Origin: Cladosporium halotolerans
Taxonomy: Eukaryota
DNA length: 64,000 nt
Assembly: GCF_011745625.1 (NCBI RefSeq)
Contig: NW_027191500.1
Span: 1 to 64,000 of the forward strand
Direction of reading: 5' to 3'
Shown here one piece after another: positions 11,476 through 44,519 of the stretch. The notes under the pieces were generated by a model. The model saw only the letters and a program-made list of their open reading frames with translations. It did not search any database and had not been told where the DNA came from. The position numbers and the translations under genes are program-made. The first letter of the stretch is position 1. The number at the start of each line of letters is the position of its first letter.

Positions 11476-11806
11476 GGCTGCGGCTTTTGGATGATTACTA
11501 TTATACCCTTTTTTTCTTGTTTGTCTGGGTGGTTTGTTGGATTGTAGTTCTGTCTTAGCGCGTTTTCCAGCGGCGGCGGGCTTTTGCTTTCGACTCGAAG
11601 CGAGACGGATATACATACACACGATGTACACGAATTACGGAACGACTCTTTTGATGCATTGCGTAACAGAGCTTGGGGCGGCAATCGAATCACTGGCGTT
11701 TATTCATAGTCTCTGAGGCTACTATTGAATCTTTGGAGGCGTGATCAGTAAGACCTACTGACGTTGTTTGTAATACACCTCTCGCAAAGGCTCTCCCTAC
11801 GATGGG

Positions 11807-13602
11807 CTAGCTGGAAGTAGGTGGGTCGAAAATTTTGCCTGGTGAGGAGAGCGTTAGCGAGGTTGTACGTTCGTCTCGGAAAGGGCCAATCTCACCTGGG
11901 TTCATGATCCAAAGAGGATCCAGGCTAGCTTTCAGCTTCTGCATCACGCCGATGGTGTCGACGCCCAGCTCCTTGACGAGTGAAGCTTTCTTTCCGATGC
12001 CAATGCCATGCTCTCCCTGGTCGTCGGTCAGTAGACGCTCACCATGAACACCAAATTGACGCCACTCACCGTACACGTTCCCTCCATCTCCAATGCCCTG
12101 TCCACCATCCTCTTCACACACTCCTCAACCTTCTTCCTCTCCTCAGGATTCTTCGCATCATACATAATCGACTCGTGAAAGTTCCCATCCCCAATATGCC
12201 CCAGCACACTCGCAAACAACCCCAACTCATCCATCTCCTTCTTGCTCACCTCAATAATCTCCGCCAATCTCGACATCGGCACCGCCACATCCGTCGACCA
12301 CACCTCCTCTCCCGCCCCCCTCAACGCCAGCATACTCCACAAACTCTCCTTCCTCGCCGACCAAAGCGCCTTCTGCTCCTCCTCGTCCGCCGTGAACTCA
12401 AACCCGCCTCCCCCCTGCTTCCTACTGATCTCCCTCACCTGCTCCACATGCTCCGCCACCGCCCCGGGCGTCCCACTAAACTTGAAAAACAACGTCGGCC
12501 GCTCCGCCCACTTCCTCCCCCCCGCCCCGCCAGCCTTATTGATAACCCCCATCTGCACATCGTCCATCACCTCCATCGCCGCAACCGGAATCCCCGCCCT
12601 CATCACGCTCGCGCTCGTCGCCGCGCACGCCTTTATCGACGGGAACGCACACACCGCCACGCTCGTCGTCTGCGGCACGACGGCCAACTTCAGCGTGACC
12701 TCCGTCACGAGCCCCAGCGTCCCCTCGCTGCCCACGAACAGGCCCGTGAGGTTGTACCCCGCGGCGCTCTTGCGCGGCCGCTTCCGCGTCCTCACCACGC
12801 TCCCGTCCGCCAGCACGACCGTCAGGTTCACCACCCAGTCGCGCATCGTGCCGTACCGCACCGCGTTCGTCCCGCTGCACCCCGTCCCCACCATCCCGCC
12901 GATCATCGCCGTGGGGCCCGGGTCGACGGGGAAGAACAGCCCGTGCGGTTTGAGGGACTCGTTCAGCGCCATCCAGCCCACCGCGGGCTGGACCGTGACG
13001 TCCATGTCGTCGGGGCGCACGGACAGGATGGCGTCCATGTGCGCGAAGTCGACGCTGATGCCGCCGTGGGGGGCGCTGAAGTTCGCTTCGAGAGACGTGC
13101 CGCCGCTGTAGGGGATGAGGGGGATGCGGTGGGTGGAGCAGACGCGGGCGATGAGTTGGACGTCGGAGGTGGAGCGGGGGTAGGCGACGGCGACGGGCAG
13201 GGTGGTGGTGTTGATGCTGGACCAGGCGGAGAAGCCGTGGTTGTGGAGGTCGTCGGCGTCCGTGGAGATGGAGTCTTCGCCGAGCTGGGAGCGGAGGGAG
13301 GCGATGGCTGTTTCGAGGGTGGCGGTTGTTGCGTAGGTTGGGGTGGCGGTTGGGTTGGGGACGGGTTGGGATTGGGGTTTGGGGGAGGGGGAGGCGTCGC
13401 TGATGCCGTAGAGGTAGGTTAGAGTACCGGTGAAAGCTGAGAAGAGGAGGGCGCGGTTGGTCGTCCAGAAGGTTTGTCGTGTTGCGGTGGGGGAGTGAGG
13501 GGAGGTCGATTGCCATCGTTTGGTGTGGCGAAGGGTAGTTCGCCTGGCTCCGGCGAGCATTGATGCTGCTCGGGGAGAATGCATCTTGGATAACATTCTC
13601 AT
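11807..13602 (-). CDS. DLD1: Mitochondrial D-lactate dehydrogenase (cytochrome), FAD-linked oxidase; 3 exons
   Basis: PYSGGTSLEANF, FPVDPGP.AMIGGM, SAAGYNLTGLFVGSEGTLG, GHIGDGNFH, GEHGIG. Introns 12017-12069 and 11839-11895. Arg/Ser-rich N-terminus resembles a presequence; start is ATG 13602, 13596 or 13584. Confidence 0.92.
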
Positions 13603-14345
13603 GAAAGAGGTTCTATGTGACTTTCTTTCAAGCAATGGTGTTGCTTGTGAAATGTCCAATGTTGCGTCGGCAATTGAAGTCCAATCCCAGGTCCTCGGAT
13701 GAAAGCGACTCCGAGCAAGCGTTGCCGATGCGTGCACCTCCAATGCTCAAATACAACGCCAGCGATAGATCCGCGAAGACTCGTGTGGTCGAGAGGTCAC
13801 AATATATATTCAAAGGCAACGATTGAAAAAGGTTACGAGGTCAGAACTTACTACACGAGGGAGTGATGTTACTGCGGTGTCGGCTTCCAATTGCCCCACC
13901 TGCCCGCCCAAAGACGTTAAAGCTAGCCGTTGCGGGTGCGATTGGTCGGTGCATTCACCCTCCGTGAGTTAGTTTGGGGGTCACGGAGAGATCTTTTCTT
14001 TGGATTACTATCATACGACAAAAACCTACGGTATTCACTCCAAAAGCCATTCACGATGGAACTTATATGCTCAGGCTCATCAAAGTGACTTCTTGCTTAT
14101 ATATTTCGACAAGTAGCGTGAGAGAATGTGCTATTATCCAAGACGATGAATTCCGGCGGAAGCTGGGGACTCCCATGGCCCCCAAACTAACGGAAAGAGG
14201 GTGGGTCAATTGCCGAAACAGATGCCGATCTCCCTCTGTGTTCCTTGCCGATGAGGAGATTGTAGAGGCTGAGTAGTGGAACGACGTAGTACCTTTTAGG
14301 TCTTGTATATGTACACTGCAGGTGTACAGTAGCCCTACAGCCATG

Positions 14346-25351: not shown

Positions 25352-26715
25352 ATCCACGTACAATAATTCATTCGTCAGTTACCATATCACGCACTCACTT
25401 CTCTCATCAGAGAACCCCCAGATCCCACCCGGAACGAAGTCGCCCCGTCGGACGAATCCTACCCGGTCCCCTCCCACAGATAGACTTCCCACCGGCCGGT
25501 ATTCGATATATTACAGTTAAACCTTTCGCAAGCCATCCCTTCTCGATGTCTCGAACTCAGAAGCGCAGCCAGGGCCCGCCCCGGGGCTGCGGAGAGTTCC
25601 AGATTGTCGAAAAGGCTATCCCGCGAAGCCGCCAATGGAGGCTAGGTGTGCCTGGCGGGGCCCCTGGCCGTCCTACCTGATGCGATCGCTAAACGACGTG
25701 TCCAATGACGTCTTCGCGTGCTGTTTGTGGTCGACTGCTCGTGCTGGAGACACGTTTTCGTAGCTGCTCATCAGACGTCTCTCCCGAAGTCTACAGTTGA
25801 TGGAATCACGGCAGTTGCATTCACGGACGCCGCAGTTGACGATCGAGCCTCCGCGCTCCCAAGCTTCCCAAATGCAAGCCTACCCCTCAGGCTTCCAACA
25901 ACTCCCGGCCTCGCGTCGTCTGCCAAATCTCGGTACGCCAATGCAGTGCCTGCAGCGACTCGGGAATCTACGTGCGTGGAGACTCCGCTGGCTGGACTGT
26001 GCCATAGGGTGATCGCCTGGCTCTCAACGTAAATTCATCACTTGGGAGTTTTGCTTTGTGGTTCCCGCGTGCAAGCTGTGCTGTGCAATGGCTCGAACGG
26101 GCGGTAGGTCTGTCGACAGGTGCCTTTCTAGTGCACTTGCCGGTTCGGTTGGAAGCGTGTTTCTGTTTCCCGCCGGCCGGCAGTTCAGACGACGACGATA
26201 TCACATTATTGGACTACTATGCAGTACTGGACTGTGAACAGCACAGCTTGCCCGTCACTAACTTGGCGAATGATGAGAGAACACCAAGATACGCCCACAG
26301 ACATCCCACGCCCACGCCCACGCGCGCCCGCCCACACTCCCCTCCGCAGCAAACACCGCAGCGCGAACGCACACACACGCACACAGACAGAGGCAAAACG
26401 TGGGCTGCTGCGCCGCGCTGCGCTGGAAGTGGCACCCGAAGGAGCCGAGCCGGGAGTCGGCGTTTGCGTTCTCTTGCGTCTGCGTCTGGCAACGCGCGCG
26501 TACGCGAGTAGGTACCTAGTGTCAGAACACGGCGAGAGACAGCAAGCAGCTTGGCGCAGACACGGAATCACGTACGGTACATACATAGTCCGGGCAAGGA
26601 AAGTTGAGTCTCCTTCGCTTCGCGCCGCGAGCTGCGCTGCGCTGCAGCCTGCAGGGCACACAGCTGGCATGTCCCGGCCGTGGGGTCAGAGTCGTGGTTA
26701 GTGAGCGCGTAGTGT

Positions 26716-26752
26716 ACCTTACCTTGCCTTGCCTTGCCTTGCCCTGCCCTGC
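26716..26752 (+). repeat. (CCTTR)n / CCCTG pentanucleotide microsatellite
   Basis: ccttaccttgccttgccttgccttgccctgcccctg. Confidence 0.7.
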
Positions 26753-29700
26753 AATGCCACGCGCGCGCGTCCTTTGCCCGGAGCTAGCGAGCTGCGAGCA
26801 GGAGGGTCCCAGGCGCGTGGGACTTGGGACTGGAGGGTCGGCGTCGCTGGCGGTGGTTGTCGGGCGTAGGGCATGGGGTTGCTTAGCCTGGCTTGTAGGC
26901 GGCGCTAGAGCGCGGCGGCGGGCGTGTCTCTTGCATTGGAGAGCGTCTTCGCGTGACGGCTGGCTGCGCTGCAGAGGTGTGCGAACGGTGGGTGGTGGCA
27001 CGGGGAGCGGCGTGGTGGCACGCTGCGAGCGTGCAGAATGCGAGCGTGGGCAGCGCTGGCCGTCGGGCCACGACAGGAGCAGGAAGGAGGGGAGTGTTTC
27101 TGCCACGAAAGCGTGCAGGCGAGAGCGCGTGGATGGGGGATCGCAGATTGCGGTCCCACGTGTCGATCGTCCCACATGGCGCGGCGGTGGGTAGTGATAC
27201 TACTGAGAGTGGTGGTTGGTGGTTGGCGGTGGGAGTGGTGTCGTGCGATCGATAGTCGTGTGGGTCGCGAGCCAGCTTTTGATTCAGGAGAGGCAGGTGG
27301 TGGTCGACCTGCTTTAGCGAGAGAAGATCGGGGCTCGACAGAAGCGTCGATTGTCGTGCAGCCCTGTGAGGGCATTTGAAATTGTTGCAATTCGAGGTCG
27401 GAGTTGGCGCCCGATGAGGCGGGAGGTTACCCTGTCATTCGTTGACCTCGGACAGGCCGCATGTGCGATCCATCGTGGCCAAGCGGTTGTTGGTCGGCGT
27501 ACTTTAGCCATCTAGATACCGCGCGGGCCGTGGGCACTACTCGCTCGCAGACTACCAGCATTTGGACATCTCGCCGCCCCAGTCAATGTGCTGAGTATCG
27601 AGGCGTCGCTAGCCTACGGCACCGTCTCTCCGAGTACGCGACCCTGCACTGCGAGCTGCAGACGGTCGAGACAAGAGTGCTATATGTCGAACAACTGCAC
27701 AGCTGTTGAATGCCGGCAGCCGCATTGACAGCAGCTATACCTTAGGCAAACGCCACGCAGCGCCAGGAAACAACACACCCGCGGCGAGGCGCACACGGGA
27801 GCGCGCCTCGACGATGGGAGGCAGGCCTGCTGGCGGGGAAGCACGGGAGTTGTGAAATGCCAGGCAGATCGCGGCGTCTAATTGGCGCGGAAGGCTCTCC
27901 CCGGATGTGTGGATTTTGGATGATTATTCGCACAGAACTTACCGTATACCGCGACATGTACAGTCCCTGGGCGCTTCACGGTGCTCACGTACATACATGC
28001 CACATATATAGGGAAGCGAGTGCATGAGGCCGGCACTCCCCCAGCTGCTGCTTCGGCCCAGACAGTCGCGAGGTGCGCCGGATCACACATTGGCGCGCTG
28101 CTGGCGGGCAGGCTGATACAACGCAAAGCGCATGTGTGCGTGCCTTGGGCGGCGAGCGATGGGACGATGAGACGTGCGCGCTGCAACCCGAGCAGAGGCA
28201 CGGCGGGCACAGCAGGGCGAGAGGCGCGTGCTGCAGGCCGACCAAAGCACACGCAGACTCCGGGCGGCGGTGCCCGCCAGCGCCATGCCGCCGGCCCAAG
28301 CAAGCCAGCAATGTGGAGCCGTGAAGGGGTCCCTTTTCACAGAATAATAACATTGGGGAATGGCAGTCGAGACTATGAGACTACTGGCAGGCTGCCGGGC
28401 TGGCCACCCTGCCCTACTCCTCTGGAGCGCGCGGCCGCTAGCCTCGAGCCTCTGTGCTTCTCTGCCTGACCCGGCCAGCCTTGCTTGCGTGTGTTAGAGT
28501 TCGCCGCTACGGGCGGATGCGCTCGCCCACGGCTGCTACATCGAACAATATCATGCGACCTGTCAATAACAGCGAGCACGGCGCCGGCGACGCGGTCTAC
28601 ACACGTAAGGCATGCAGCGCCGGCCGGCGACAACTCGGACGTCGGGCGAGGGCGAGCGCTGGTGAGGTGATCAGATCAGGCACGTCCGCATGTGCAAAGT
28701 CCAGCACGCAGGATTGATTGTTGCGGTGCACACGGGCATCCAGACACGCTGCACAGCAGCGCGGGCTCCGCACGGCACACCGGCGGGCCAGCAGACACAC
28801 GCCGGCGCATGCGGTTGCACGTGGCTCGGCGGCGCGACCCCTGCCACGGCTCTGTGCGCGCCGGGCTCGAGGTTGGCGCGGCGGGCAGGACGAGACGGCG
28901 ACGACGGGTGGATGTGGGTGTGAGGGTGGATGTGCTGTACTGTAGATGGTCGATGCGCACCTGGACGTGGATGGCGGACGGACGGCGCAGGGTGCTTGCA
29001 CGCACGCCCTTCTCGGCGGGCAGGATGGCACTGGGGCACTATGTACCTTACTGGAGGCTCGGACGGTCGCCGGCTCGGTAGCGACAGCGGTGTTGCCATG
29101 TTGGCGTGGGTGCGGGTGTGCGCTGCCGTGCTGCGAGGCCTGCGCGCTGCTCAGTAGTGCTGGCCGGCTGCGCGGTGGGCTCCAAGGGCTCCCACGCCCT
29201 GCCGAAGCGGAGACCGGCCAGGCGCTGAGAACGGTGCCGCATATGCATGTGCCATGCTGAAAAAATTACTACAGCCCGCCGTCGCCCCGTCCGCCGCCGT
29301 CCTGTGTCCTGTCCTGTCCTATCCTGTGTCCAACGCCTGCAACAAGACCGCCAGCATCGCCTGCTGCCGTCTGCGCCACGCCACTCTCGTCTCTCCTGCT
29401 CTCTCGCGACCCGCGCCTCCGCGCCCCTCCGCCGTATATCACACCTCCCGTCTGCTCTCCGCCCGCCCCGCCCACCTCTGCTGCCCTCTCCGTCCTATAG
29501 CTGAACCCTGAGCGCACCTTATACCCCCTCCAGCGCCCGCGCCCCCCAATCGCTCCAAAGCTACACCATCGGACGGCACCCCAACGGCGGCCCTCCCGGC
29601 ACTCAATCCAGTCCACCGCCGCACTTCGCAGGCGGCGCATCGCTAGGTTGTCCTTTGCCGATCGCGTGCGGTATCCGCCAGAACCCTCTGTTCCCGGTCT

Positions 29701-30106
29701 AGTCCCGAAAGCACATGGTCGCGAGCTTCTACTCTGCACCTCACATCGGTCCTCTCTCACGTCCTCTGCTTACTCCAACGCAAGCTTCGGTTGGATCTCT
29801 GTCCCTATCACCCCTCCTTCCTACGCCTGTGTGGGGTGCGCCCGTTGCCACGTCCCCTCCTCGCGCCTGACATCGAGACAAATTCCCGCTTTTTAGCCAG
29901 ACAAACGGCCCGCAGGACTCGCCCGTTGGTCAGGGACCTCGCCCTCCGGGACCACCACCACCCGTGCCACCACGCCCGCAGAGCGACGACAGAACTGTCA
30001 CCCGGGCCCAGGGACACTTGCTCGTTCACCTCACATACTCTGAGACGTGGTACTGCCGCCAGCCCGACCGCCCGCGCGCACTAACGCCGAACACGACTTG
30101 CCCATC

Positions 30107-30912
30107 ATGTCGCACGGAAAGATGACGCTCTACAAGCTGGTGGTGCTAGGAGACGGCGGTGTTGGCAAGACCGCACTCACCATCCAAGTAAGCTCTTCCG
30201 GCGTGATTCATGCAAGTGAAACCCCTCTAATACATCCTAGCTCTGCCTGAACCACTTCGTCGAGACCTACGACCCCACCATCGAGGACTCCTACCGCAAA
30301 CAGGTCGTCATTGACCAGCAGTCGTGCATGCTCGAGGTCCTCGACACAGCAGGTCAGGAAGAATACACAGCGCTGAGAGACCAATGGATACGAGACGGCG
30401 AGGGATTCGTGCTGGTGTACAGCATTTCTTCACGAGCGTCTTTCGCCCGTATTGAGAAGTTCCACCACCAAATCCAGCGAGTCAAAGAGTCCGCCGGCGC
30501 TGGCTCGCCCACCTACCCTGGATCACCGCTCTCGCAGACCATGAACGCCTCTTTCGGCCCGGCTCCGGTCATGCTCGTGGGTAACAAGTGCGATCGCGTG
30601 ACGGAAAGAGAAGTCTCCACACAGGAAGGCAGCGCTCTCGCGAAGCAGCTCAACTGCGAGTTCGTCGAGGCGTCGGCCAAGAATTGCATCAACGTTGAGA
30701 CGGCTTTCTTCAACGTCGTGCGACAGTTGCGCAAACAGCGAGCCAGCGCGCCGCCTCCCCGCGACTCCAAGGGATACAACTCCGGCGCGGGCAAGGGCAG
30801 CCGTCCACCGCGCGACGCGTACTACGACAACGACCGCAAGGAAGAGCACCGCTACCGCAGGCCGCGGAAGCACCGAAGTGAGCGCGGTGGCTCCAAGTGC
30901 GTCGTCCTGTGA
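30107..30912 (+). CDS. RAS2: Ras-family GTPase, Ras2/RasB type; 2 exons
   Basis: YKLVVLGDGGVGKTALTIQ|LCLNHFVETYDPTIEDSY, DTAGQEEY, NKCD, EASAK, C-terminal CAAX CVVL. Intron 30188-30240. Confidence 0.93.
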
Positions 30913-31649
30913 TTCCGGCCCTCGCGTTCGCGAATGCACGCCAAAAGAGAAAAAATCAATCAAGGCTTCCGGCCCGGTCGAAGCGGTCACGGACTTCACT
31001 TTTGGGTTTTCCCACTCGGATGTCTTGTCCTGTCCAGTCGGCACTGCGATCGCCGGCCACGACCGCGACGGCCCTAACGCCGCAATCGCAGTCCCATGGC
31101 GAAACGCTCAATAATCCCCCACAATCTCGAGTTGCTGCCCAACCCGCGAATTTCCCTCGGACCTCCCCCGACCCCGACCGCCTCGCCGCATGGCGCCCGC
31201 CGACTACACCCCGTGCGCTGCGCGGCATGCCGCTTCCGGAATCACGGTCGAAGGGCCCGACACCGTGGCTCGAGCAGGGCGAATGAGACCAAAAGACCGG
31301 ACGGACTTCTCGAACACCCCCCCAATGAAGGCTCCACACGCCGCCGCCGCCGCGCACAAACGCATGTGGAGTGCAGCGCGCCACGCGGCGTCGTGCAGTG
31401 GAAAAGTCCCTCACTGGATGGGCACTGGTACACACGCACCCCGGCCTTCCACCACCCCGGCCAGGAACAATCTGCAGCAGCAGCAACAGCCGCTCGGAAT
31501 CGCCGACCGCACCGCACCTCCCGCCCTGCCCTGCCCTTGCTCACCCCGAGGAGGCGGCGCCAACGCCAGATTCGCTCCCGCGCGCCAGTTCGCTTGCCGG
31601 GAAAGATGCTGGACGGATTCTTCCCCCAATCCTCCCTCTTCTCCGCTCC

Positions 31650-31680
<31 letters not shown>

Positions 31681-31681
31681 C
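31650..31681 (+). repeat. (ATCA)n tetranucleotide microsatellite
   Basis: About 8 tandem atca units. Confidence 0.85.
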
Positions 31682-31831
31682 ACCCACCCACCATTCAACC
31701 AACCGACCGAAAAAACCCCCCTCTCTCTCCCTACGCTCTGGCCGCCCGCACGCCGCAGCTCAGCAGAAGCCTCCAATTAGCCTGATGGCCCGGAATTCCC
31801 GCGCGCCCACCGCCCCGGCACAATCCTTTTC

Positions 31832-31860
31832 CCCAGTCCCAGTCCCAGTCCCAGTCCCAG
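31832..31860 (+). repeat. (CCCAGT)n hexanucleotide microsatellite
   Basis: About 5 tandem cccagt units. Confidence 0.85.
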
Positions 31861-33561
31861 CCCGCGCACGCGAGCGGCGCGTGGCAGCCAGAGCCGGGGG
31901 GGACTCTCTTAGCGAGATTGGCGCGGTATCGGCCGGCCGCCCACCGGGACCCTGCGACTTCGCGAGCTGTGGAGAAGACGCGCCGCATGGAGCGTCGGTC
32001 ATGTGACTCCTCTCGCTTTACTTTCCGGTCTCGGCGCACGCGAGTCGAGCGTCGCGTCTTATCGGGTGAAACTGAGCCGATGGATGGGATGGGAGGGCGT
32101 TGCTCGCTTCGCGGGCGTCCTTGGTCTGAGCGCTGGAGGAAGGAGGGGAGGATTCGCTCCCCTGCTCTGTCGGTCTGTCGAGCCTGGACCAGCCGTTGGA
32201 TTGGCTTTGGAGAGCTCGTGCCAAGCTCAGGCCGCCGGTCGGGTCGGAGGCACGTGTTTTTATGTTTTTTGGCAAGGCACGAGGGAGCCGAGCCGGATGG
32301 GAGGGCTCCTTCGGGCCTGCCGGGGCCGGTACCGCTGCCGCTGTTGCTGTTGCTTTCGGGAGCTCGTCGGCGGCTTGGGGGGGTGTGTGTGAGGATAGAT
32401 TGGTTTTTTGGGGGGTTAAGGTTGAGAGGTACAGGGCGGGATTGATGATTGATAACGATCGCTTTGGGGGGAGAAGGTGTTCACCGCCTCTGCTCTGCTC
32501 TGCGGAGATGGAGAGAGGAAGGGCCGATTGGGCGGGTTGCCGCGTTGGGATGGAAAGTGGTGCTGGGAGGGGGCAATGAGATCGGAATGAGCGGGGTTTT
32601 TGTTAATGATTGGATATATGGTAACTATTCTACATACACGTATGAACATGAGCCTGGAGAAAAAGTCATGAAAGCATTCACGGTTGCCTGTCGAGGATGT
32701 TTGGAGCGGGTACAGAAAGCCAGTGATAATAAATAAGTGGCCAGTGTCTTCTCGCTTGTGAGCTTCTTTGCCGTGCTGGGTCTCTTTCAGGTCGCATGAT
32801 CTGAGCGGGACACGAATGCTATTGAATGGAGCTGTTGAGAGATATGCCGAGCCCGTTTCATGGCGGAGATGTCTGATGGCTGGCTTTTGGGTTGCTGGTG
32901 GAGGCCCGACGCGACCTACTGAGGCGGCGATGAAGAGGTAGCTCCGTCGGTCGAGTGGTGTTCAGTGGCCGGCCTTTCCAAGGAACAGTGGCATCAAGCT
33001 ATTGAGGACACGCATGACTGACCATAGACAAGTTTCACCGCCGGGAGAATATTCAAGCGTGAGCTCTCGAGCTTGTAAAGTCAACAAAAGAGCCTTCCCA
33101 CGATATTAACTTGGACTTGTCGACTTGATTGTGTCTGTATAGATGGTCGAAAATTACTAAATGATGCGAAAAAGATGATGAACTTTCCAATGCGATTCTC
33201 GCGCACAGATGTGCAATCCCAGAAGCATTCCTTTCCAATTTGGAGAGGCCAGCACCCAGGAGGGTGCTGTTCAGCCCCGATGTGCGCGGGATGTTCGACC
33301 CGGACCGGGGTCCGACGACCGAAGGTTCCCAGAATAAACCCAAAGTGCAGACCCGGATGCCGACGAAGACGGCCGCGGTAACGGTCGCAGAAACAAGAAG
33401 CAAAAAAACCAAAGAAGCCAGATGCAAACGCCCAAGAAGCGCCAACCTCGCTAAAACCTCGCAGCAAGAAAGGAAAGAAAGCAAAGCATGGGGGAAAAGC
33501 AAAGTGCCAAATCCGCAGCACGCAGCAGCGTGCATCCAGGTCAGGTCAATGGAGACCCATC

Positions 33562-35069: not shown

Positions 35070-35932
35070 CTACCCCTCCACTGCCGCGTCCGCAACCTTC
35101 AACATGCCAAATTCCTCGCTGACCTGCGCCACCGTCTTGCGACTCTCCCAAAATTGCTTTCCGTAACTGATCAGAATCTCCTCGCCCGCCTTGACGCCCT
35201 GCTTGCGCTTCCCCGCCTTGCCCGCCGACAGCACGAAGATGCCCACGCGCCGCTCCCACTTCGTCCCGCCCGCGCGCTTCGCACACGGCACCTTCACAAA
35301 GCAGTCGCGGAACTCCGCGTTCGGCCTCTCCGCTATCCCGCGGTAGTCATTCGCGCACCGCGACTGGTTGCCCGACCGGGACGCGTCGACGCTCAGGTCG
35401 ATCTCGCGGTCGAAGCACAGGTCGTAGTCGCTCGCCGGGTCGGTGTCGGAGGGGATGTTGCGGTGGATGTGGCCGAGGTAGAGGCATACGAAGCGGTCGG
35501 GCTCGAGGTCTTGCGCGGCGAAGAGGCCGCGTTGGCCGTGCGCGGGGTGTTTGGGGTCGGCGATGATGGTGATGGCGCAGGTTTTGGGCGTCGCGGCGAT
35601 TTGGGAGGCGGTGATTTTGCAGTTTGCGTCGAGCTCGCTGGCGAGGTGCCAGAGTAGGGCGCGTTGCTCTTCGGTTACTGCTTCGGACCAGGTGGGTTCT
35701 GTCTGAGTGTTAGGCGCTGGTAGTGGTATGGCGTGATGATTGGAGCGAACCGACCGGTAAGATATGTGATATCCTCTGGCCAGTTCTTTGGCAAGCCAGA
35801 GGCTTCCTCTTCTGGAACTGGTGGTTCATCCTGCCGCTTCTTCAACTCTTCCTCTCTCTTCTTTGCAGCTTCTTCTTGCTTCTTCTCCCATTCAATTTGC
35901 TTCTTGCTGATGTCTCTCTTCTTCGAAGGCAT
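35070..35932 (-). CDS. Small SET-domain methyltransferase (Set7-like), 2 exons
   Basis: Intron 35699-35754 joins ..KNWPEDITYLT-EPTWS.. to HPAHGQRGLFAAQDL..YLG..DYDL..VDAS.SGNQSRCANDYRGI.ERPNAEF..GEEILISYGKQFW. The middle part is absent from the ORF track and was translated by hand. Confidence 0.88.
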
Positions 35933-36385: not shown

Positions 36386-37939
36386 TCACTGATTGCTGCA
36401 ACCCTTGCAGAACCACGCAACATCCTCAGATGGCTCTTCAGTCACACCCGCGCAGTGAAAATGGAACCATTGCCTCTCGCAATCAGGCCCATCACAGCCA
36501 ATCATTGGCCCAGCGCTAGGCGAGTCGCAGTAGCAATATCTCTGCGCGCCCTGGTTATCATGTCTTGACTTACGCCTCTTCTGCGGCGTAGGCTCGACTA
36601 CAGGTTCACTTGAGTTTTCGACCGGCGGCGTTGATTGCTTCATGCTGCCGTCGCTTTGTTCCGTGGTGATCTTCTGCTTTTTGGACGTCCGGTTTTTCGA
36701 GTGTTGTAATGTTTCTTCGTCCTGGGAAGGCTCTTGTTGACTGATCTTACGCTTTTCCCCACGAGGTTTCTCCTCGTCGGTCTGCTTTTGAGATTGCCGC
36801 TTCTCAGCCTCTTCGCTCGCGCCCTCCACGTTCGCAATCGGGTCATGTAACGCATTGACAATACGCTCAGTCCCCATCTCGTCGCCTTCGATCGTCTCCT
36901 TGATTTCGGGATCGACCCAGCCTTCCGTCCAAGATCCGCCAAAATCAATAATCCAGAGCTTATTGGAAGAGTCGACCAGGAAGTTGTCCGCCTTTGCGTC
37001 GCCCCAGACAATTTTGCGCTCGTGCAGGGCATCCCTCATCCTTTCGACCCCCGCTGCCCAGGCGTCGCGCTGTTCCTGCGGTATTTCTGCGTCGAGCTTG
37101 TGTGTTAGGGGTGTTGGATCGGAAATCTCCTGTTGCAGGAATCCAATGGCGTGCGTTTTCGAGTTTCCTGGAGAGACCAGCCCTTCGAGCCGAGGCGCGC
37201 AAACATCCTCCGCAAGATCCGGCTGCGCAACTCTATTCAAATGCCACAATTCTCGCTTCGTCGTCTGCGGCGCCGCAGCATCTACCATCTTGAAGAAATA
37301 CTCTTTCCCCGTCCGATCACAGCGAACAAGCGTAGGATGATAAGGCGGCGGCGCCGCGCCACCAGCCAACACCGTCAGCTCGCCCTGATCAAACCACGGC
37401 AAACCCATCTCTCTTATGTATTTAGGCAGGGTAATCTCAGGCCTCAGTTTCGCCATCCTGCGCTTCAGCTCCGATGACGCTTCGAGCTCGACGGCGGCCA
37501 GCTCATCGTCGTCTGAGATTTCTAGTGAGAAGAACTGTGTCGGCGCGTCGAACCATTGCTGCAGACTCGGCTGCTTGTGCTTTCCGGCAACATCTCGCCG
37601 AACAGGCTGCAGCAGCCAACGCTGCAGCGCCTCCTCCGCATCTTCGATCGAATCCGCCTTCTCGCTCGGCTTGTCTTCCGCGCCTTCCTCGACGGCGCTG
37701 TCGTGTGCGCTTGGAGATTTGTTGTCTCCGTCGCTGATCTTTCGGAATGCGGAGACTAATCGTGCGTAGTCGCTATGTGTTTTGCTGTCATTGGATTTGC
37801 GCGATTCCTGAAACTTGCTCGCGTCGGCGATGACGTGCATGCGATGGTTGTCTTCGGTGTAGACGGTCAGGGCGCAGCTGTCGTTGTCGTCGACTAGGAA
37901 GTCGAGGACGTGGTGGGGTGATGAGGGATTGGGAGACAT
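36386..37939 (-). CDS. Protein kinase-like domain fused to a C-terminal ING-type PHD finger
   Basis: YFFK, KRE, WGDAKADN catalytic loop, DFG. Ends YCYC...MIGCDGPDCERQWFHFHCAG..WFCKGC (C4HC3). Basic NLS-like linker. Confidence 0.85.
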   Translation of the reverse strand: MSPNPSSPHHVLDFLVDDNDSCALTVYTEDNHRMHVIADASKFQESRKSNDSKTHSDYARLVSAFRKISDGDNKSPSAHDSAVEEGAEDKPSEKADSIEDAEEALQRWLLQPVRRDVAGKHKQPSLQQWFDAPTQFFSLEISDDDELAAVELEASSELKRRMAKLRPEITLPKYIREMGLPWFDQGELTVLAGGAAPPPYHPTLVRCDRTGKEYFFKMVDAAAPQTTKRELWHLNRVAQPDLAEDVCAPRLEGLVSPGNSKTHAIGFLQQEISDPTPLTHKLDAEIPQEQRDAWAAGVERMRDALHERKIVWGDAKADNFLVDSSNKLWIIDFGGSWTEGWVDPEIKETIEGDEMGTERIVNALHDPIANVEGASEEAEKRQSQKQTDEEKPRGEKRKISQQEPSQDEETLQHSKNRTSKKQKITTEQSDGSMKQSTPPVENSSEPVVEPTPQKRRKSRHDNQGAQRYCYCDSPSAGPMIGCDGPDCERQWFHFHCAGVTEEPSEDVAWFCKGCSNQ

Positions 37940-38765: not shown

Positions 38766-40723
38766 TCAGGCGCTGCCCTGGGCAGCGTCTCCCCCATAAA
38801 TGAGTATGGCGCGGATTGCCAATGCGAGGAGCTGCCCGGGTTGGCAGATCGGCTGATGACCGTCTTCCGGGAGTTCCTGCTCAATCGCTGCCAGCTTTCG
38901 GTTTGCGGCATCCAATTGCAGCTTCAGATTAAAGTTCTGCAGGTCTGAATTGGTAAAAGCCGTGAAGTTATTATAAACGCTGCGCTGGAGATCTTGCTTC
39001 TCACGCTCGAGGCTCTGGATTCTCGACACAGCTTGTTGGTAGTTGCGCTTCAATCTATTGTGGACTTCTGCGCGAGCTTCGGGTGACCGGGAGCGGCGTG
39101 GTCTATCCAAGGACCGGTTCTCGCGAAAGCTTTGCCTGGCCCGAGTCGGATTTGGTGCAAGATCACTTGCAACAAGACCAGTTGGAAGAGGAACCTGTGC
39201 TTGGGTGTTGGCCTGCAGAGGTGGGTTTGTCGACGATCGTCCTGTCGCGTTCGCCGAGCTGAATATAAGCCCAGGCGAGCCATGAATAGGGACCCTGTTA
39301 TCCAGGAAATAGTCCCAATCGAATGAGTTGTCATGTGTGGGAATTTGCTGTTGTGGCGGCTCGGTCGATGGGACAGGGTTCGGGCGCTGTGCTACCAATG
39401 AACCGTCATGCCACAGAACTTGCTGTGGTACGGGGTCGCTCGACGGAACAGGGTTCAGATACTGTGCGACCGATGCATTGTCAGGTATGGGAATTTGCTG
39501 TGGTGCGAGCTCATTCGATGGAACAGGATCCGGTTGCTGTGCTACCAATGAATTGTCATGCCACAGTACTTGCTGTTGTGCGGGCTCGCTCGATGGAATA
39601 GGGCTCAGATACTGTGCGACCGATGCATTGTCAGGTAGGGGAATTTGCTGTGGTGCGAGCTCGTTCGCAGGAACAGCATCCGGGTGCTGTGCAAGCGATG
39701 AATTGTCGCATGCGGAAACTTGCTGTCGTGGAAGATCGGTCGATGGGAAAGTGTTCGGATGCTGTGGAAGCGATGAACTATCATACCTAGGACCTTCCTG
39801 TCGCGGGAGCTCGTTCGATAGGGCAGGGTTCGAATCGGGCGCCATCGAAAGACCGAAAGTCTGGGGGAAGAACACGCCCGGATTCGAGTACGGATTCAGG
39901 TGGCCAACGCTGACTGCTGTTATGTTCGAAGATGCAGATTGGGGGTCGCCGTGGTCTGGTGCGGAGGGTGCAGCTTCGGTGCCTAGCACGACTGTTTGGT
40001 TCGGCGGAGAGATCGGCTGTTCGCTTGCTGCTGATGAAGGCGCAGAGGCTGTTGCGGTAGCCGGAAGATGGTCTGAACAGGAGTCAGAACGCTCTCATAT
40101 AGACATGGAGATCACTTACATGGAGGAGGGACCATCGAAGTCCCAGGGAACAAGCAGCGGTACCCTTCCTCCCAGGCTTTTTCCTCGTTATCGAAGTTTC
40201 TCGTTTTGATAGCGAAAAATATTTCCATGTTTTCGGTTGTAGCGACACCACCCGGGCCATTGAGTGGATGCCTCGGTATCAAATTGGTGGATGCGAAACA
40301 TGCGAGCCCATCTGCCAACGAATTTTTATGTTGACGGTACTCTCTGTAATTCTCGAGGTGGTGGCCTTTGGTGCACCACAATCCATGTTTACCTACATGC
40401 TCCCTACAAAAGTACATTACTCGAAAACCTAGTGCATCGACGAAGTAAATGGTCACTTACTTGACTTTGTACCAGCTATCAAAACTCGATGTTGTGTCGC
40501 ACTGCTCTGGTTTGTTTGCACGCAGCGGGCAAGTCAGTCGGCTTCGTGTCGCTGTCTGGGCCGTCGGAAGCACAGTAGCACTTTGAGGGAGATTAGGCAC
40601 AGTAGCATCGATTTGTGAGGCAATGTCGCTAGCTGGAGGAACTTGAGGGGCGAGCCGGGACATTGAAGAAGATCGGAGTGGCAGCTGACCCCAGTTTCCG
40701 AGCCCGCTATTCTCGTTGTTCAT
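38766..40723 (-). CDS. Hypothetical Zn-finger-like protein with tandem 20-aa repeats and a coiled coil; 3 exons
   Basis: Exons 40461-40723, 40120-40403 and 38766-40072 (GTAAGT..AG introns) give CPLRANKPEQC..KVKEHVGKH, W...Y..LFP...PPPY, the repeats, then a basic region plus coiled coil. Confidence 0.75.
39320..39830 (-). repeat. Coding minisatellite: ~60-bp unit, ~8 copies, with 120-bp higher-order duplication
   Basis: Recurring P.PVPS.E..PQQ....DN.S.AQ units. The strings agatactgtgcgaccgatgcattgtcagg and gctgtgctaccaatgaa each recur 120-150 bp apart. Confidence 0.85.
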
Positions 40724-41611: not shown

Positions 41612-44113
41612 TCATCGGTACAAATAGTTCTTCTCGAACTTGTTGCCATAGTAATCCAATTCCTCCCCATCTCGGAATCCACGAGACGGTCTCACGACCT
41701 GTATAGCTCCGTCCCAAAAGCCCTCTGTTTCGGGCTCAGATACTCCACAGGCTAGACTGCGCTGATTTGCAAGTTTCCGCTCTTTCCTGAACGCAGACAA
41801 GAGTGCAATGTTGTCTATTTTTGGCGGCTCAGGTGACTTGGACTGCGGACGAGGCGATGCTGCGCTCCAGCCGTTGTCGACCGTGACTTCTTTCTCTGCG
41901 GAGCCCGCGACACCGGCGAATCTGCCAGTCTCAATGCTGGGGAAAGCACACTCGTCTTCTTCACCAAAGAAGCTAAAGTCGGTCTCCGCGGCAGACCATA
42001 GGGCTTCGCTGTCACGGTCCTCCGTCATGGACTTCGTGGATAGATGCTGCCATGGACTTGCCTGTCCAAACGAGTCTTTTGCATGCTCTGGTGCCATTTC
42101 GATAACAATCTTCTTCAGTGCAAATATCTTGTTGGCAGAGTGCCGCAACGCTGTTGCTTGGCCCTTGCGTCCTGGAGGAAGACTATAATCGAGGGTTGCT
42201 TGGGCTTGTGCCAGATGAGCTTCATGTGCGCAGTTCTTTACGAAGCAGATCAAACGGTTTGCGGTTGCTTCATCGGTCGAAAAAGGAGGGAAGTTGGTGA
42301 TGATCAGAGTCCGCAGTCGTGGGAGCATGGCCGGGTGAAGATTGTGACTCTGAGACCGGTGCTCATTGAGGCGAGCTTTGCGCTCGGTCACAACATTGGA
42401 CAGACTCCGCGGCCGCGAAGGTTGTTGTGGCGCAAAGACCGGGGTGGAAGGTTCGACTGGAGATACAGTACTCATGGTTCCGAATCCTGTTGCCGTGAGA
42501 GTGGCTTCACTGACTGGCGATTTTGGATCGAGCAGCTTCATGGTATTCGTCTCCGCGGCTAGGTTGTCAACGACCTCAGGAGCAAGTGCACTGCCTCTTC
42601 GCGGTTGTGCTTCATCAACATTATGCTCGGCAGGGGAGACGACGAACTGCATGGGGTCGGCTTCCAATTCATACCGAGGTGTCTGCTCGCCTGTGGGCAG
42701 CTCAAATGTTTCGGTCGCGACTCGATTGCCGCCAAGCTCAAAGATATTACTGTTCGGCATCTCAGGTAGTGCTGTATCGGCCAATTCTGTACGACCGGGT
42801 ACGACCTCATCAGAATACGTGTTAGGCACATCCTTTGTGAGCAGTCTATGATCCACCTTGAGATAAGTCAAGCCTTCCCTGGCATGGTCATGCAGCACTG
42901 GCGTAAGCTTTTCCGCGCCCGGCAACTGCCATTCATCATTATTGACTTCATCGCTCGGGACTGACAAGTGCCGCTCGATTGCGCCTGTGATACTTCCGAC
43001 ATCGAGCACGTGCAGTCGACCGGACCGTATCAGACCAGACGCGCCTTCCACGGTGACCTTGTTGTTGGAGATATACAGGTGCGTTATGCCGCCCTCCGGG
43101 GCATCTTCAATGGCAAGTCGGCTAACGAACGCTCCGGTAAATGCACCACGAATGAAGCCCTCAAACTCCTCGCTTTGATAAATATCCAGCATCTCAGCTC
43201 CGAGGTACGGGAGAAGGGACGGCGATCGCGCTCCTTGAGGGACATAGTCAACTCCATGACTCGATGATGGGTCTTGAGAGGTAAAGCATCCGTCCAGCAG
43301 CATGCGGACACCGCGATCGGTGATGTGATTGTCGCGAAGGTCGAGACTACGCACCCTTCGACCTATAGCCCACGCAAGGACCTCAATCTCTTCGTCGCGC
43401 AGACTGATCCCACGTAACTTCAGCACTTGGAGACCGGGGAACCGTCTAAATGATTCTAACACACTACGATCTCTCGCAGGATAGGTGTGCGACAAGTCCA
43501 GATACATCAGGGATTCGAAGCGTTTGAGCGCTTGAGCGAGTCCGCTGGACGTGACGTTTGGGCATCTTGAGGCATCCAGTAACCGCAACCCAAAGGAAGG
43601 TATGGCATTTGGAGGTGGCTGAAAAACGGATCCAGCCGATCCAGGAAGTTCCACCGCGAAGCTTTGCGGATGTACTGGAGCGTTGTTGGCTTCGGCAGGT
43701 TTCCACTGCCTCAGAGCGATTAGGGCCGCATGATCAAAGAAAGGCAAGCCTCTCACGATCAGAGATTGCAGATTAGGTAGTCTCGAAAGAATGTCTCGTA
43801 GCCAGTCCGAGTGCGGCCCGTTGTAGATCTCAGCATGTGCCGGTGGTAAATGCAAGGTATGCGTCTGCGATCTGACAAGGAGACGTGCGGTTTGGAGTGT
43901 GCGCTTGAACTTCGTGAGAGCAACGTAAACCCGGTCGTTCTCAATACCGAAGTGCGAGGCTGGGTTTCCCCAAAGGTGTGGCGAAAATGTTGTATGCCAC
44001 TTGCTGCATACCAAGGCCGCCGAGCATAGGTCACTCGAGGGAATATAGTTCGCGACCAAGTCGAGGTAGTCGACTAAGGTCGCCTTCTCGTACGACGGCG
44101 GCGCAGCTTCCAT
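41612..44113 (-). CDS. F-box / leucine-rich repeat protein
   Basis: N-terminal F-box-like LVANYIPSSDLCSAALVCSKW; LRR units (LPNLQSLIV, LQVLKLRGISL, VRSLDLRDNHIT, ITHLYISNN). Confidence 0.82.
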   Translation of the reverse strand: MEAAPPSYEKATLVDYLDLVANYIPSSDLCSAALVCSKWHTTFSPHLWGNPASHFGIENDRVYVALTKFKRTLQTARLLVRSQTHTLHLPPAHAEIYNGPHSDWLRDILSRLPNLQSLIVRGLPFFDHAALIALRQWKPAEANNAPVHPQSFAVELPGSAGSVFQPPPNAIPSFGLRLLDASRCPNVTSSGLAQALKRFESLMYLDLSHTYPARDRSVLESFRRFPGLQVLKLRGISLRDEEIEVLAWAIGRRVRSLDLRDNHITDRGVRMLLDGCFTSQDPSSSHGVDYVPQGARSPSLLPYLGAEMLDIYQSEEFEGFIRGAFTGAFVSRLAIEDAPEGGITHLYISNNKVTVEGASGLIRSGRLHVLDVGSITGAIERHLSVPSDEVNNDEWQLPGAEKLTPVLHDHAREGLTYLKVDHRLLTKDVPNTYSDEVVPGRTELADTALPEMPNSNIFELGGNRVATETFELPTGEQTPRYELEADPMQFVVSPAEHNVDEAQPRRGSALAPEVVDNLAAETNTMKLLDPKSPVSEATLTATGFGTMSTVSPVEPSTPVFAPQQPSRPRSLSNVVTERKARLNEHRSQSHNLHPAMLPRLRTLIITNFPPFSTDEATANRLICFVKNCAHEAHLAQAQATLDYSLPPGRKGQATALRHSANKIFALKKIVIEMAPEHAKDSFGQASPWQHLSTKSMTEDRDSEALWSAAETDFSFFGEEDECAFPSIETGRFAGVAGSAEKEVTVDNGWSAASPRPQSKSPEPPKIDNIALLSAFRKERKLANQRSLACGVSEPETEGFWDGAIQVVRPSRGFRDGEELDYYGNKFEKNYLYR

Positions 44114-44519
44114 CTGCACCGATCTGACATAGGTGTCGGTCGCCGAGTACAGTGAACGAACTTCGCTTTGACTAGGATGCAGGAATGCAAGTTGGTCCCG
44201 CTGGCGAATGAGTGATGTGCAGGAAGCGAGGACCGCATGACATGGCGAAGGATCACGCTAAGCGACGCTACCACCGTAGGCGTCTGCAACCCATCACACA
44301 GCCACCTTGAATCGGACTTCCTTCTGTAAGGATACTACCGTGGCGTCAACAGCTGAACACTGCTATTTTGGTGCCCACTGAAATGACAACAGAGCACGGG
44401 TATCGGTAACTATGGACAGCCCGCCCTCACAAGAACTGACCCAAGATCGTCTTCAGCTCATACTTGTGAATGCCCAACACCAGAACGCCTCTGCCCATAT
44501 TTATGATCATTATTGCGTC

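Follow-up and report, generated by a model that had tools for sequence, protein, structure and literature searches.

The window analysed here, a 64,000-nucleotide stretch of Cladosporium halotolerans contig NW_027191500.1, encodes on its reverse strand a 517-residue protein (P0001) in which a minimal protein-kinase core is joined in a single frame to a C-terminal ING-type PHD finger (Table 1). The reading that we favour, with moderate confidence, is that of a mini-kinase which is competent for catalysis and is tethered to H3K4-methylated chromatin, a fusion that probably recruits a phosphorylating activity to active chromatin. The original prediction, made from the letters of the DNA and proposing an atypical kinase targeted to chromatin and equipped with an ING-type PHD finger that reads H3K4me3, agrees with every computational test that was run, and all motifs named in it were recovered in the order given when their coordinates were checked by translation.

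Table 1. Features of the kinase-PHD gene and its protein (positions are those of the window).
Feature	Residues	Positions	Strand	Remarks
Whole CDS	1-517	36386..37939	(-)	517 codons + stop, ATG start, intron not required
N-terminal module, conserved	9-175	37415..37915	(-)	three strands, two long helices, β-hairpin, helix
Disordered loop within the N-terminal module	70-97	37649..37732	(-)	pLDDT 50-58; conserved DS(G/A)V motif
Minimal protein-kinase core	176-375	36815..37414	(-)	β1-β5, αC, hinge, αD/αE, catalytic loop, DFG, DPE, αF
β3 lysine (EYFFK)	K217	37289..37291	(-)	invariant in the 150-row alignment (150/150)
αC glutamate (KRE)	E230	37250..37252	(-)	150/150 rows; within helix 224-237 of the structure model
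Catalytic loop WGDAKADN	312-319	36983..37006	(-)	D314-x-K316-x-x-N319
DFGG	332-335	36935..36946	(-)	followed by the family signature S-[YW]-T-x-G-W-[VI]-D-P-E
Disordered linker	376-465	36545..36814	(-)	basic clusters GEKRKIS, SKKQKI, QKRRKSR
ING-type C4HC3 PHD finger	466-517	36389..36544	(-)	pLDDT 90-96

The open reading frame, which had been described as intronless, is indeed translated from ATG to stop as one 517-residue protein, and upstream of its start a stop at 38041 is reached without a further in-frame ATG. Relatives found by protein search align over 98-100% of this length, and intron joints were seen in none of the contigs from the 24 sequencing runs examined. Among these runs only X13 is on record as RNA, and it contributed one 249-nt contig (36259-36507, 1 difference) covering the end of the PHD finger and the 3' flank, while X8, which is labelled RNA-Seq, gave two 151-nt contigs in the kinase core (36887-37037 and 37099-37248). 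In X1 and X5, both guessed or probable DNA, a relative of approximately 94% DNA identity is continuous across the whole frame without joints. That kinase and finger are adjacent genes, an ING-like C-terminal fragment being read through from the kinase or transcribed separately, would be in line with the existence of PHD-less kinase versions and with the finding that no contig from a firm RNA library among the 24 runs bridges the two domains. Such a gene-model artefact is nevertheless highly improbable, as the 90-codon linker frame is open here and no stop interrupts the fused frame in 29 of 80 independent metagenome loci (38-61% identity), the relative in X1 and X5 carries 111-131 substitutions over the compared stretch with a CDS free of indels, independent annotation pipelines predict a single fused protein for over 20 named species, and the linker offers no start-codon context for a PHD finger which alone would be a 52-residue peptide.

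As expected of a eukaryotic protein kinase, the protein possesses the β3 lysine/αC glutamate pair, a D-x-K-x-x-N loop combined with a Mg-binding DFG, and a bilobal kinase fold. D-x-K-x-x-N is the Ser/Thr-type catalytic loop of Hanks-Hunter subdomain VIb. Because K217, E230, D318, N319, D332, G334 and G335 are present in 150 of 150 alignment rows and D314 and K316 in 149, catalysis appears to be under selection; F333 is kept in 145 rows and replaced by M in the other 5, and S336, T338, G340 and W341 of the signature that follows are invariant or near-invariant in the family. An apparently intact kinase-like core had been proposed, and this holds for the lysine, the glutamate, the catalytic loop and DFG, but the core is a minimal one which stops after αF. 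In the predicted structure of the 517-residue protein αF (350-365) is followed by two short helices only and then by the disordered linker; neither a long activation segment nor an αG-αI (GHI) lobe is present, DFG (332-334) and the APE-like DPE (343-345) being spaced by 10 residues, and short paralogues terminate approximately 53-60 residues past the catalytic Asp. A Gly-rich GxGxxG loop is equally absent, with residues 192-202 between β1 (188-194) and β2 (201-207) reading AGGAAPPPYHP; the family as a whole has the consensus P-x-P-Y-H-P here, in which P199, H201 and P202 are conserved to at least 90%. The core is thus best described as seemingly complete for catalysis but structurally truncated, and not as a full canonical kinase domain. 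Since the GxGxxG loop and any lobe past αF are missing and the gap between DFG and DPE spans 10 residues, the usual platform for a peptide substrate is missing, and therefore an ATPase activity or a non-protein substrate is conceivable.

A minimal core that acts through ATP hydrolysis has precedents in Bud32 of the KEOPS complex and in the RIO kinases of ribosome assembly. The protein may accordingly be a chromatin-tethered ATPase or conformational switch and not a protein kinase, with ATP hydrolysis driving or timing a step of a chromatin complex and the PHD finger serving as its address. This alternative, which we consider unlikely although worth keeping in mind, would fit a core that ends after αF and has neither an αG-αI lobe nor a long activation segment, weak matches to models of RIO1, APH, Kdo kinase and Bud32, and invariant catalytic residues that suit ATP hydrolysis as well as phosphotransfer. 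As for kinship with those groups, identity with the Bud32/KEOPS kinase was rejected, as the models reach 12.5-19.7 bits against cut-offs of 125-447 and the best NCBIfam equivalog (19.7 bits versus 125) covers residues 293-334 only. Membership in the RIO, APH and Kdo families was likewise rejected on scores under the gathering cut-offs, RIO1 reaching 18.4 bits versus 22 and APH 17.9 versus 23.2 with matches confined to the catalytic-loop region 281-335, and Kdo kinase giving no Pfam match in the protein at E<=1. The Pfam model PF00069 Pkinase itself stays below its gathering cut-off (25.2 bits versus 31.7), matching over profile positions 75-144 of 263 only; this cut-off is passed by the relatives P0190 (52.7 bits), P0195 (40.1) and P0131 (32.4), the first two being short paralogues. 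When 22 diverse family members were scanned, Pkinase and PHD were each found in 20 of them at E<=1e-3, with best E-values of 1.9e-10 and 1.7e-12 respectively, and APH matched in 11 and Kdo in 2 members, Pkinase being the most frequent and strongest kinase match.

These APH and Kdo matches could also be taken to indicate a nuclear small-molecule kinase acting on a metabolite or lipid, of the APH, choline-kinase or Kdo-kinase type, with the PHD finger localising the product or sensing the chromatin state. The peptide-binding C-lobe is missing, and the large N-terminal module could form a ligand pocket; this module of approximately 170 residues, the fold of which was unmatched, is common to short PHD-less paralogues of approximately 340 residues. 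That reading is nonetheless improbable in view of the sub-gathering matches restricted to 281-335, the predominance of Pkinase in the family, and the neighbourhood of the gene, in which a SET-like gene, a Pro/Gln-rich protein and an F-box/LRR protein are found and a metabolic gene context is absent. The SET-like neighbour was considered as a functional partner and rejected, as its position reflects ordinary short-range synteny: of the 22 PHD-bearing loci whose 3' flank reaches at least 1.1 kb, 8 have it next to the gene, some loci, L007 and L008 for instance, being near-copies; all 8 belong to the clade of 56-61% identity, and it was seen in 0 of the 14 loci that are more distant.

ING, Yng1, Yng2, Pho23 and Png2 PHD fingers are H3K4me3 readers of histone acetyltransferase and deacetylase complexes. 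The C-terminal finger of the present protein has all eight zinc ligands of a C4HC3 PHD finger with ING spacing (C469, C471, C482, C487, H493, C496, C511 and C514, in the motif run YCYC...MIGCD...WFH), each kept in 114-118 rows out of the 116-119 that the 150-row alignment has at the ligand columns. Although its Pfam score of 20 bits lies below the gathering cut-off of 24, ING4 is matched by the single sequence at E 2.4e-12, ING PHD matches span 2.4e-12 to 1e-8, and the family profile matches Pho23 at 2.4e-23, Png2 at 2.6e-22, Yng2 at 3e-21 and Yng1 at 1.2e-19. By the ING3 offset and an ING4 alignment, the predicted H3K4me3 cage is formed by Y468, S475, M479 and W491 and the Arg2 pocket by C482, D483 and W509. 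The Tyr, Met and Trp, already singled out in the original prediction as cage positions, coincide with residues of ING3, for which a Tyr/Ser/Met/Trp cage and a Cys/Asp/Trp Arg2 pocket were defined experimentally (PMC5000080), and all seven positions have their counterpart in this protein. In the 117-119 PHD-bearing rows Y468 is conserved in 112 (with F in 5 more), M479 in 116, W491 in 115, D483 in 113 and W509 in 114, while at the Ser of the cage S is found in 87, D in 13, E in 9, G in 3 and A in 3.

The original prediction had set the kinase against the helical N-terminus of ING proteins, and no Pfam match to the helical, leucine-zipper-like ING domain was obtained in the 517-residue protein at E<=1. 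Membership in the ING protein family was rejected, the N-terminus being a β/α module followed by the kinase. The relatives P0059 and P0266 bear the names 'Yng2' and 'chromatin modification-related protein' on account of the PHD finger alone. Between the folded domains, which have a mean identity of 54% each, the linker is only 23% identical and, with pLDDT <50 across most of 392-465, predicted to be disordered; it is both basic and acidic in composition, with 19 K+R next to 17 D+E in 90 residues. Its three basic clusters resemble nuclear-localisation signals, and R397 and K420 are the only linker residues conserved to at least 90%. Homology of the linker to ING proteins was rejected, as the profile alignment to Pho23, Png2 and Yng2 upstream of the finger consists of low-complexity acidic and basic runs with large gaps and inserts.

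A database search retrieved 327 proteins at E<=1e-3, the best named one from Cladosporium fusiforme with 63% identity over 99% of the length, and an exhaustive search of representatives had 566 matches reaching E<=1e-10, 65 of them with E<=1e-30; among the matches listed from the database search, PHD finger, cage, catalytic loop and DFG are all kept in 100 of 121 proteins. The fusion is widespread in Pezizomycotina, in Dothideomycetes, Diaporthales and one Exophiala, with Diaporthales sequences apparently nested among those of Dothideomycetes, and the family occurs in Cladosporium, Fulvia, Pseudocercospora, Dothistroma, Cercospora, Diaporthe, Cryphonectria, Aureobasidium and Exophiala. Many hosts of the family are plant-associated and extremotolerant fungi. 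Judging by an impression from the listed rows, no named record from classic model fungi is among the matches listed, and this apparent absence may account for the family being unstudied. The claim that no characterised protein has this architecture stands for the literature searched, in which no characterised PHD-kinase with a built-in H3K4me3-type PHD finger was found, but the architecture as such is already recorded in databases, where its members are called 'hypothetical' or 'PHD-type domain-containing'; a single record has the automatic name 'protein kinase domain, Zinc finger, PHD-type', and JGI pipelines label relatives automatically as 'Bud32'.

The association of this kinase with PHD fingers has arisen repeatedly. 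While 135 of 266 full-length family proteins carry a C-terminal PHD finger (two fingers apiece in two proteins), 11 others carry it inserted in the N-terminal module instead, where the alignment places the inserted finger of P0318, P0315, P0146, P0130 and P0142 at the position of the disordered loop 70-97. PHD-less members make up approximately half of the kinase clade (33 of 66 rows; 41 of 86 ingroup rows of the kinase tree), and no PHD finger lies downstream of the PHD-less metagenome loci, so the kinase would work without the reader in many species. The loop fingers are of other subtypes: that of the Aureobasidium protein P0318 matches BPTF (2.4e-15), CFP1 (1e-14) and PHF2 (1.4e-14), that of P0142 ASH1L (2e-9) and MLL5 (3.6e-9), and that of P0130 Yng1 (2.2e-14). 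The matched BPTF, CFP1, PHF2 and MLL5 chains are H3K4me3 readers. That the clade carries BPTF/CFP1-like, ASH1L/MLL5-like and Yng1-like fingers in the N-terminal loop is new. In the kinase-only tree the loop-PHD forms require at least three changes, and their grouping as one clade is rejected (p-AU 0.008, for a group chosen after viewing the tree). Reader-type PHD fingers have thus been captured independently by the kinase clade at least three times and at two positions. Because different methyl-lysine-reader PHD fingers were joined independently at two positions, a role of the kinase on H3K4-methylated chromatin is suggested, and together with the conservation of both catalytic and cage residues we regard the comparative evidence tying its function to such chromatin as unusually strong.

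PHD fingers also recognise H3-like N-termini and methylated non-histone proteins, as described in PMC8166343 and PMC9898751, and the finger of the kinase could bind a methylated or H3-mimicking non-histone partner, or autoinhibit the kinase in cis, in a protein that is not targeted to chromatin. The variable cage Ser position would allow for this, but the conservation of the full ING cage and Arg2 pocket, the independent capture of three further reader-type PHD subtypes and the conserved NLS-like basic clusters (R397, K420) make it improbable.

Under the favoured reading of a kinase tethered to chromatin, a mini eukaryotic-type kinase, composed of the family-specific N-terminal module and a core ending after αF, would be connected by a flexible linker of approximately 90 residues with NLS-like clusters to the ING-type PHD finger. 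The basic clusters would carry the protein into the nucleus, where the finger would dock on H3 tails trimethylated at K4, at the 5' ends of active genes, and the tethered kinase domain could phosphorylate Ser/Thr of a nearby chromatin substrate, candidates being the histone tail that is bound, one next to it, or machinery bound at the promoter. According to PMC5291243, phosphorylation of H3T3/T6 anti-correlates with the retention of PHD fingers on H3K4me3 chromatin, and binding by the PHD finger of DIDO is abrogated by H3T3ph, and a read-write enzyme would for this reason evict readers. A speculative and rather doubtful extension is therefore a histone kinase that, docked by its finger on H3K4me3, phosphorylates the same tail beside K4 (at H3T3 or H3T6, or S10/T11, for instance) and by this phospho-methyl switch evicts ING, TFIID and COMPASS readers as well as itself from active promoters, a self-limiting off-switch which several fungal lineages would have assembled independently from different PHD subtypes. 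The family provides an entry point to the question of what directs phosphorylation to the active chromatin of filamentous fungi, and to the capabilities of a eukaryotic-type kinase core without the αG-αI lobe.

Compared with known systems, the core shares with canonical kinases, Rad53, MKK7 and PKC iota having been matched, the N-lobe, αC, hinge, αE, D-x-K-x-x-N, DFG, an APE-like DPE and αF, but differs from them in the absent GxGxxG loop, the 10-residue DFG-DPE spacing, the absent αG-αI lobe and the extra 170-residue N-terminal module. A small C-lobe and weak sequence matches are reminiscent of Bud32/PRPK, RIO, Kdo/WaaP and APH, whereas the scores lie far under the respective cut-offs and both the catalytic-loop Lys and the APE-like motif follow the eukaryotic protein-kinase pattern. 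By description, the family also recalls the Aspergillus nidulans kinases FfkA-K, Pezizomycotina-restricted, divergent and patchily distributed kinases of unassigned function whose deletions were without phenotype; PMC3591445, in which they are described, mentions PHD 0 times. With ING, Yng1, Yng2, Pho23 and Png2 the protein has in common a C-terminal finger with the C-x-C...M-x2-C-x4-C...W-x-H signature, the cage and Arg2 residues and an upstream NLS-like basic region, and ING-group PHD fingers are its best PDB sequence matches; in contrast to ING proteins, it has no N-terminal helical domain, and the finger stands in cis with an enzyme instead of recruiting a multi-subunit acetyltransferase or deacetylase. 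Enzymes with a histone-mark reader of their own, PHD-demethylases and PHD-methyltransferases among them, take a central place in chromatin biology, and the PHD-JmjC demethylases PHF8, PHF2 and KDM7 and the PHD-SET proteins MLL5 and Set3 are fusions of an H3K4me3 reader and an enzyme in cis. As in those fusions, the methyl-lysine-reading PHD finger is predicted to address a catalytic domain of the same chain to marked nucleosomes, with the difference that the catalytic domain is a kinase.

The kinase-PHD gene, which encodes the 517-residue protein P0001, is real and conserved, and translation of each sub-range recovered every motif that the original prediction had named. A word-indexed protein search with P0001 returned 327 proteins at E<=1e-3, with full-length matches from 94% down to ~35% identity, and an exhaustive search of 1.84 billion representatives returned 4275 at the same threshold, of which 566 reached E<=1e-10 and 65 reached E<=1e-30. 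The fusion recurs widely among these relatives: PHD, ING-type cage, D-x-K-x-x-N and DFG occur together in 100 of the 121 proteins among the matches listed (query counted), next to 6 with a PHD but one motif pattern (regex) missed, 8 kinase-only proteins and 7 fragments. In metagenomes, 29 of 80 loci with relatives carry catalytic loop, DFG and ING-type PHD in a single stop-free frame; in one further locus, L033, the PHD overlaps the ORF end in a different frame, 3 hold no ORF with the motifs, and 47 are without a PHD, with none downstream either. A DNA relative ~94% identical differs by 111-131 substitutions over the compared stretch and by only two indels, both upstream of the ATG. RNA support for the gene is thin; that it is a gene-model artefact is considered extremely improbable. 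Mean identity to 115 PHD-bearing relatives (N-module 41%, kinase core 54%, linker 23%, PHD 54%) is the pattern of folded, functional domains on a flexible tether.

Features of the P0001 protein (residues) and its surroundings in the window (nucleotides)
Feature	Position	Strand	Description
Kinase-PHD gene	36386..37939	-	one 517-codon ORF; start at first in-frame ATG
EYFFK	K217	-	translation
KRE	E230	-	translation
WGDAKADN	residues 312-319	-	translation
DFGG	residues 332-335	-	translation
N-module	residues 9-175		three strands, β-hairpin, helix; helices 53-69 and 98-113 either side of disordered loop 70-97
Kinase core, N-terminal elements	within residues 176-375		β1-β3 (K217), αC (E230), β4-β5, hinge
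Kinase core, C-terminal elements	within residues 176-375		αD/αE, catalytic loop, β7-β8, DFG
Kinase core, end			short stretch to D343-P344-E345, αF 350-365, two short helices
Linker	residues 376-465		90 residues by translation, 19 K+R, 17 D+E; disordered, basic and acidic clusters
PHD	residues 466-517		C-terminal C4HC3 finger; translation contains YCYC...MIGCD...WFH
SET-like gene	35070-35932	-	directly downstream, same strand; probable first exon 35675-35932, then frame change
Upstream neighbour	38766-39845	-	359-aa Pro/Gln-rich protein, repeated 'PxQQ(I/V)...HDNS...AQ' units, no Pfam match
Upstream neighbour	41615-44257	-	881-aa F-box/LRR protein
G+C-rich blocks	8000-14000 and 26000-32000		G+C 0.61-0.66 vs ~0.51-0.56 in rest of window

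The downstream gene has a weak SET-domain match (E 1.1e-4, 23 bits against a cut-off of 22.4). Eight related loci, each belonging to the closest clade (56-61% identity), show it next to the kinase-PHD gene, and none of the 14 more distant ones with sufficient flank does.

Taken as a single sequence, P0001 gives a weak domain call (Pfam Pkinase 1.3e-5, PHD 7e-4, both under gathering cut-offs), and the assignment draws its strength from the relatives. P0001 is neither Bud32 nor a RIO, APH or Kdo kinase; each of these was tested and fell under its cut-off. An AlphaFold2 model from a 150-row family alignment (mean pLDDT 83.5, pTM 0.73) is confident for residues 9-375 and 468-517 and disordered at 392-465; with the full model, Foldseek matches number at least 500 at E<=1e-3, and every one of the 49 listed has the protein-kinase fold (protein kinases, TYK2 pseudokinase domains and one lanthipeptide synthetase), with LIMK1 at the top (8.7e-7) and TM by target of 0.4-0.6 across the matches. 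The predicted structure bears out a kinase fold for the core, and by modelled fold and catalytic motifs P0001 belongs to the protein-kinase superfamily. In an ESM-Atlas structural search residues 4-366 match Ascomycota 'protein kinase domain-containing' clusters of ~340 aa (TM 0.72/0.83), so that N-module and mini-core form an evolutionary unit which also stands alone; the corresponding PHD-less short paralogues stop 53-60 residues past the catalytic Asp and exceed the Pfam Pkinase threshold over profile positions ~20-145 of 263. A 946-aa relative, P0234, is a further architecture built on the mini-kinase: it has two kinase-like units (Pkinase in two stretches; residues 831-905 match Kdo) and matches TCAD9 weakly.

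K217, E230, D318, N319, D332, G334 and G335 are invariant in the 150-row alignment, and D314 and K316 are each kept in 149 rows, a near-total conservation that would not be seen in a decaying pseudokinase. The 'intact' kinase core originally proposed holds for the catalytic residues (149-150 of 150 rows), but not for the Gly loop, the activation segment or the GHI lobe: P0001 has no GxGxxG loop (AGGAAPPPYHP at the position, with P199, H201 and P202 conserved), only 10 residues lie between DFG and the APE-like DPE, and the αG-αI lobe is absent from the core. Since this lobe is missing and the activation segment is short, there is room for an ATPase switch instead of a protein kinase, which we regard as unlikely, and for a small-molecule substrate, which seems more improbable still.

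P0001 is not an ING protein; the N-terminal ING domain was looked for with Pfam and is absent. Against the PDB, the family PHD profile ranks fungal ING proteins first (Pho23 2.4e-23, Png2 2.6e-22, Yng2 3e-21, Yng1 1.2e-19), with TAF3, CFP1 and Spp1 trailing far behind at ~1e-7 to 1e-8. According to PMC5000080, the H3K4me3 cage of ING3 consists of Tyr-8, Ser-15, Met-19 and Trp-31 and its Arg2 pocket of Cys-22, Asp-23 and Trp-47; by offset from ING3 and an ING4 alignment, the predicted counterparts in P0001 are Y468, S475, M479 and W491, and C482, D483 and W509. The claimed retention of the cage Tyr, Met and Trp is thus found in P0001 itself and in most of the 117-119 PHD-bearing rows (Y 112 plus 5 F, M 116, W 115), in which the Ser position is S 87, D 13, E 9, G 3 and A 3, and the pocket has D 113 and W 114. 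A non-histone PHD ligand is accordingly given little credence.

The new finding of the analysis is the repeated capture of reader PHDs. N-part, catalytic loop and DFGG are present in 266 of the 326 proteins examined: 132 have one C-terminal ING-type PHD, 2 (P0041 and P0048) have two in tandem, 1 has one other C-terminal PHD, 11 have a PHD in the N-terminal loop with the C-terminal one absent, and 120, short paralogues counted, have no PHD at all. In an alignment including the loop forms, the 11 inserts fall exactly in the model's disordered loop, with helix 53-69 on one side and the DS(G/A)V motif on the other. The insert of Aureobasidium pullulans P0318 is closest to BPTF (2.4e-15), CFP1 (1e-14), PHF2 (1.4e-14) and DIDO1 (9e-14), with ING matches no better than ~1e-6; that of P0142 is closest to ASH1L (2e-9) and MLL5 (3.6e-9), and that of P0130 to Yng1 (2.2e-14). 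PHDs of BPTF, CFP1, PHF2, DIDO and MLL5 are H3K4-methyl readers. On a kinase-only tree the loop forms stand at three places, and constraining them to one clade, a group chosen after viewing the tree, costs 84 log-likelihood units (p-AU 0.008). PHDs of different subtypes, all belonging to H3K4-methyl-reader classes, were thus joined to the same kinase repeatedly, at two positions, which is comparative evidence, independent of single-residue arguments, for a coupling of kinase function to H3K4-methylated chromatin. The insert of P0279 is ING-like by motif pattern (regex), while its sisters in a loop-PHD clade (support 98; compared with P0146 and the Aureobasidium rows) are BPTF/CFP1-like, which hints at replacement of one PHD type by another at the same site.

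Among named records, with lineages checked, C-terminal ING-PHD carriers are Dothideomycetes (Cladosporium, Elasticomyces, Neophaeotheca, Baudoinia, Salinomyces, Teratosphaeria, Dothistroma, Cercospora, Fulvia, Pseudocercospora, Zasmidium), Diaporthales of the Sordariomycetes (Diaporthe, Gnomoniopsis, Cryphonectria) and the Eurotiomycete Exophiala bonariae; PHD-less in the same clade are Hortaea, Polychaeton, Dissoconium, Pestalotiopsis, Seiridium, Neopestalotiopsis, Xylariaceae, Exophiala mesophila, Cladophialophora, Neocucurbitaria, Phaeosphaeria and Ophiobolus. Our impression from the rows listed is that model fungi are not among them. P0059 (604 aa) is filed under the plant Quercus suber as 'chromatin modification-related protein yng2', a name resting on the PHD alone; as every other named member is ascomycete, this record probably stems from fungal DNA that entered a plant assembly. 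The family trees are quick searches: with FastTree on kinase-only sequence, 33 of 33 PHD rows fall in one 66-row clade (support 100) outside which the short paralogues lie, and with IQ-TREE (LG+G4), run on 92 rows with six short paralogues as the root, all PHD-bearing rows belong to a 76-row ingroup group, beside which a 9-row group and P0153, PHD-less alike, are unresolved at the ingroup base; PHD state (none, C-terminal or loop) needs 11 changes on this tree. In both trees Diaporthales nest within Dothideomycete sequences, where the Cladosporium-like group is their closest neighbour (sister position with 81-83 support, not starred), reflecting either weak resolution or inter-class transfer.

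The following course of events is judged fairly probable and the likeliest of the readings, and from H3K4me3 binding onward it is what we infer: the basic linker clusters, where conservation of R397 and K420 is 90% or more, would mediate nuclear import, the PHD would dock on H3K4me3, and the linker of ~90 residues would let the mini-kinase reach the same or neighbouring nucleosomes or promoter-bound machinery and place phosphate onto Ser/Thr of nearby substrates. That it acts on the H3 tail itself, as writer of a self-limiting phospho-methyl switch (compare PMC5291243), is the boldest extension and a doubtful one.

The original prediction knew of no characterised protein with such an architecture, and no paper on it was found in the full-text literature, a coverage mostly outside subscription journals; the proteins are not unseen, however, being already listed in databases as hypothetical or 'PHD-type domain-containing'. 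The Aspergillus nidulans Ffk kinases (PMC3591445) are a possible relative. From canonical protein kinases P0001 differs in Gly loop, activation segment and GHI lobe, while with the PHD-JmjC and PHD-SET reader-enzyme fusions it would share the same working logic, the enzyme here being a kinase.
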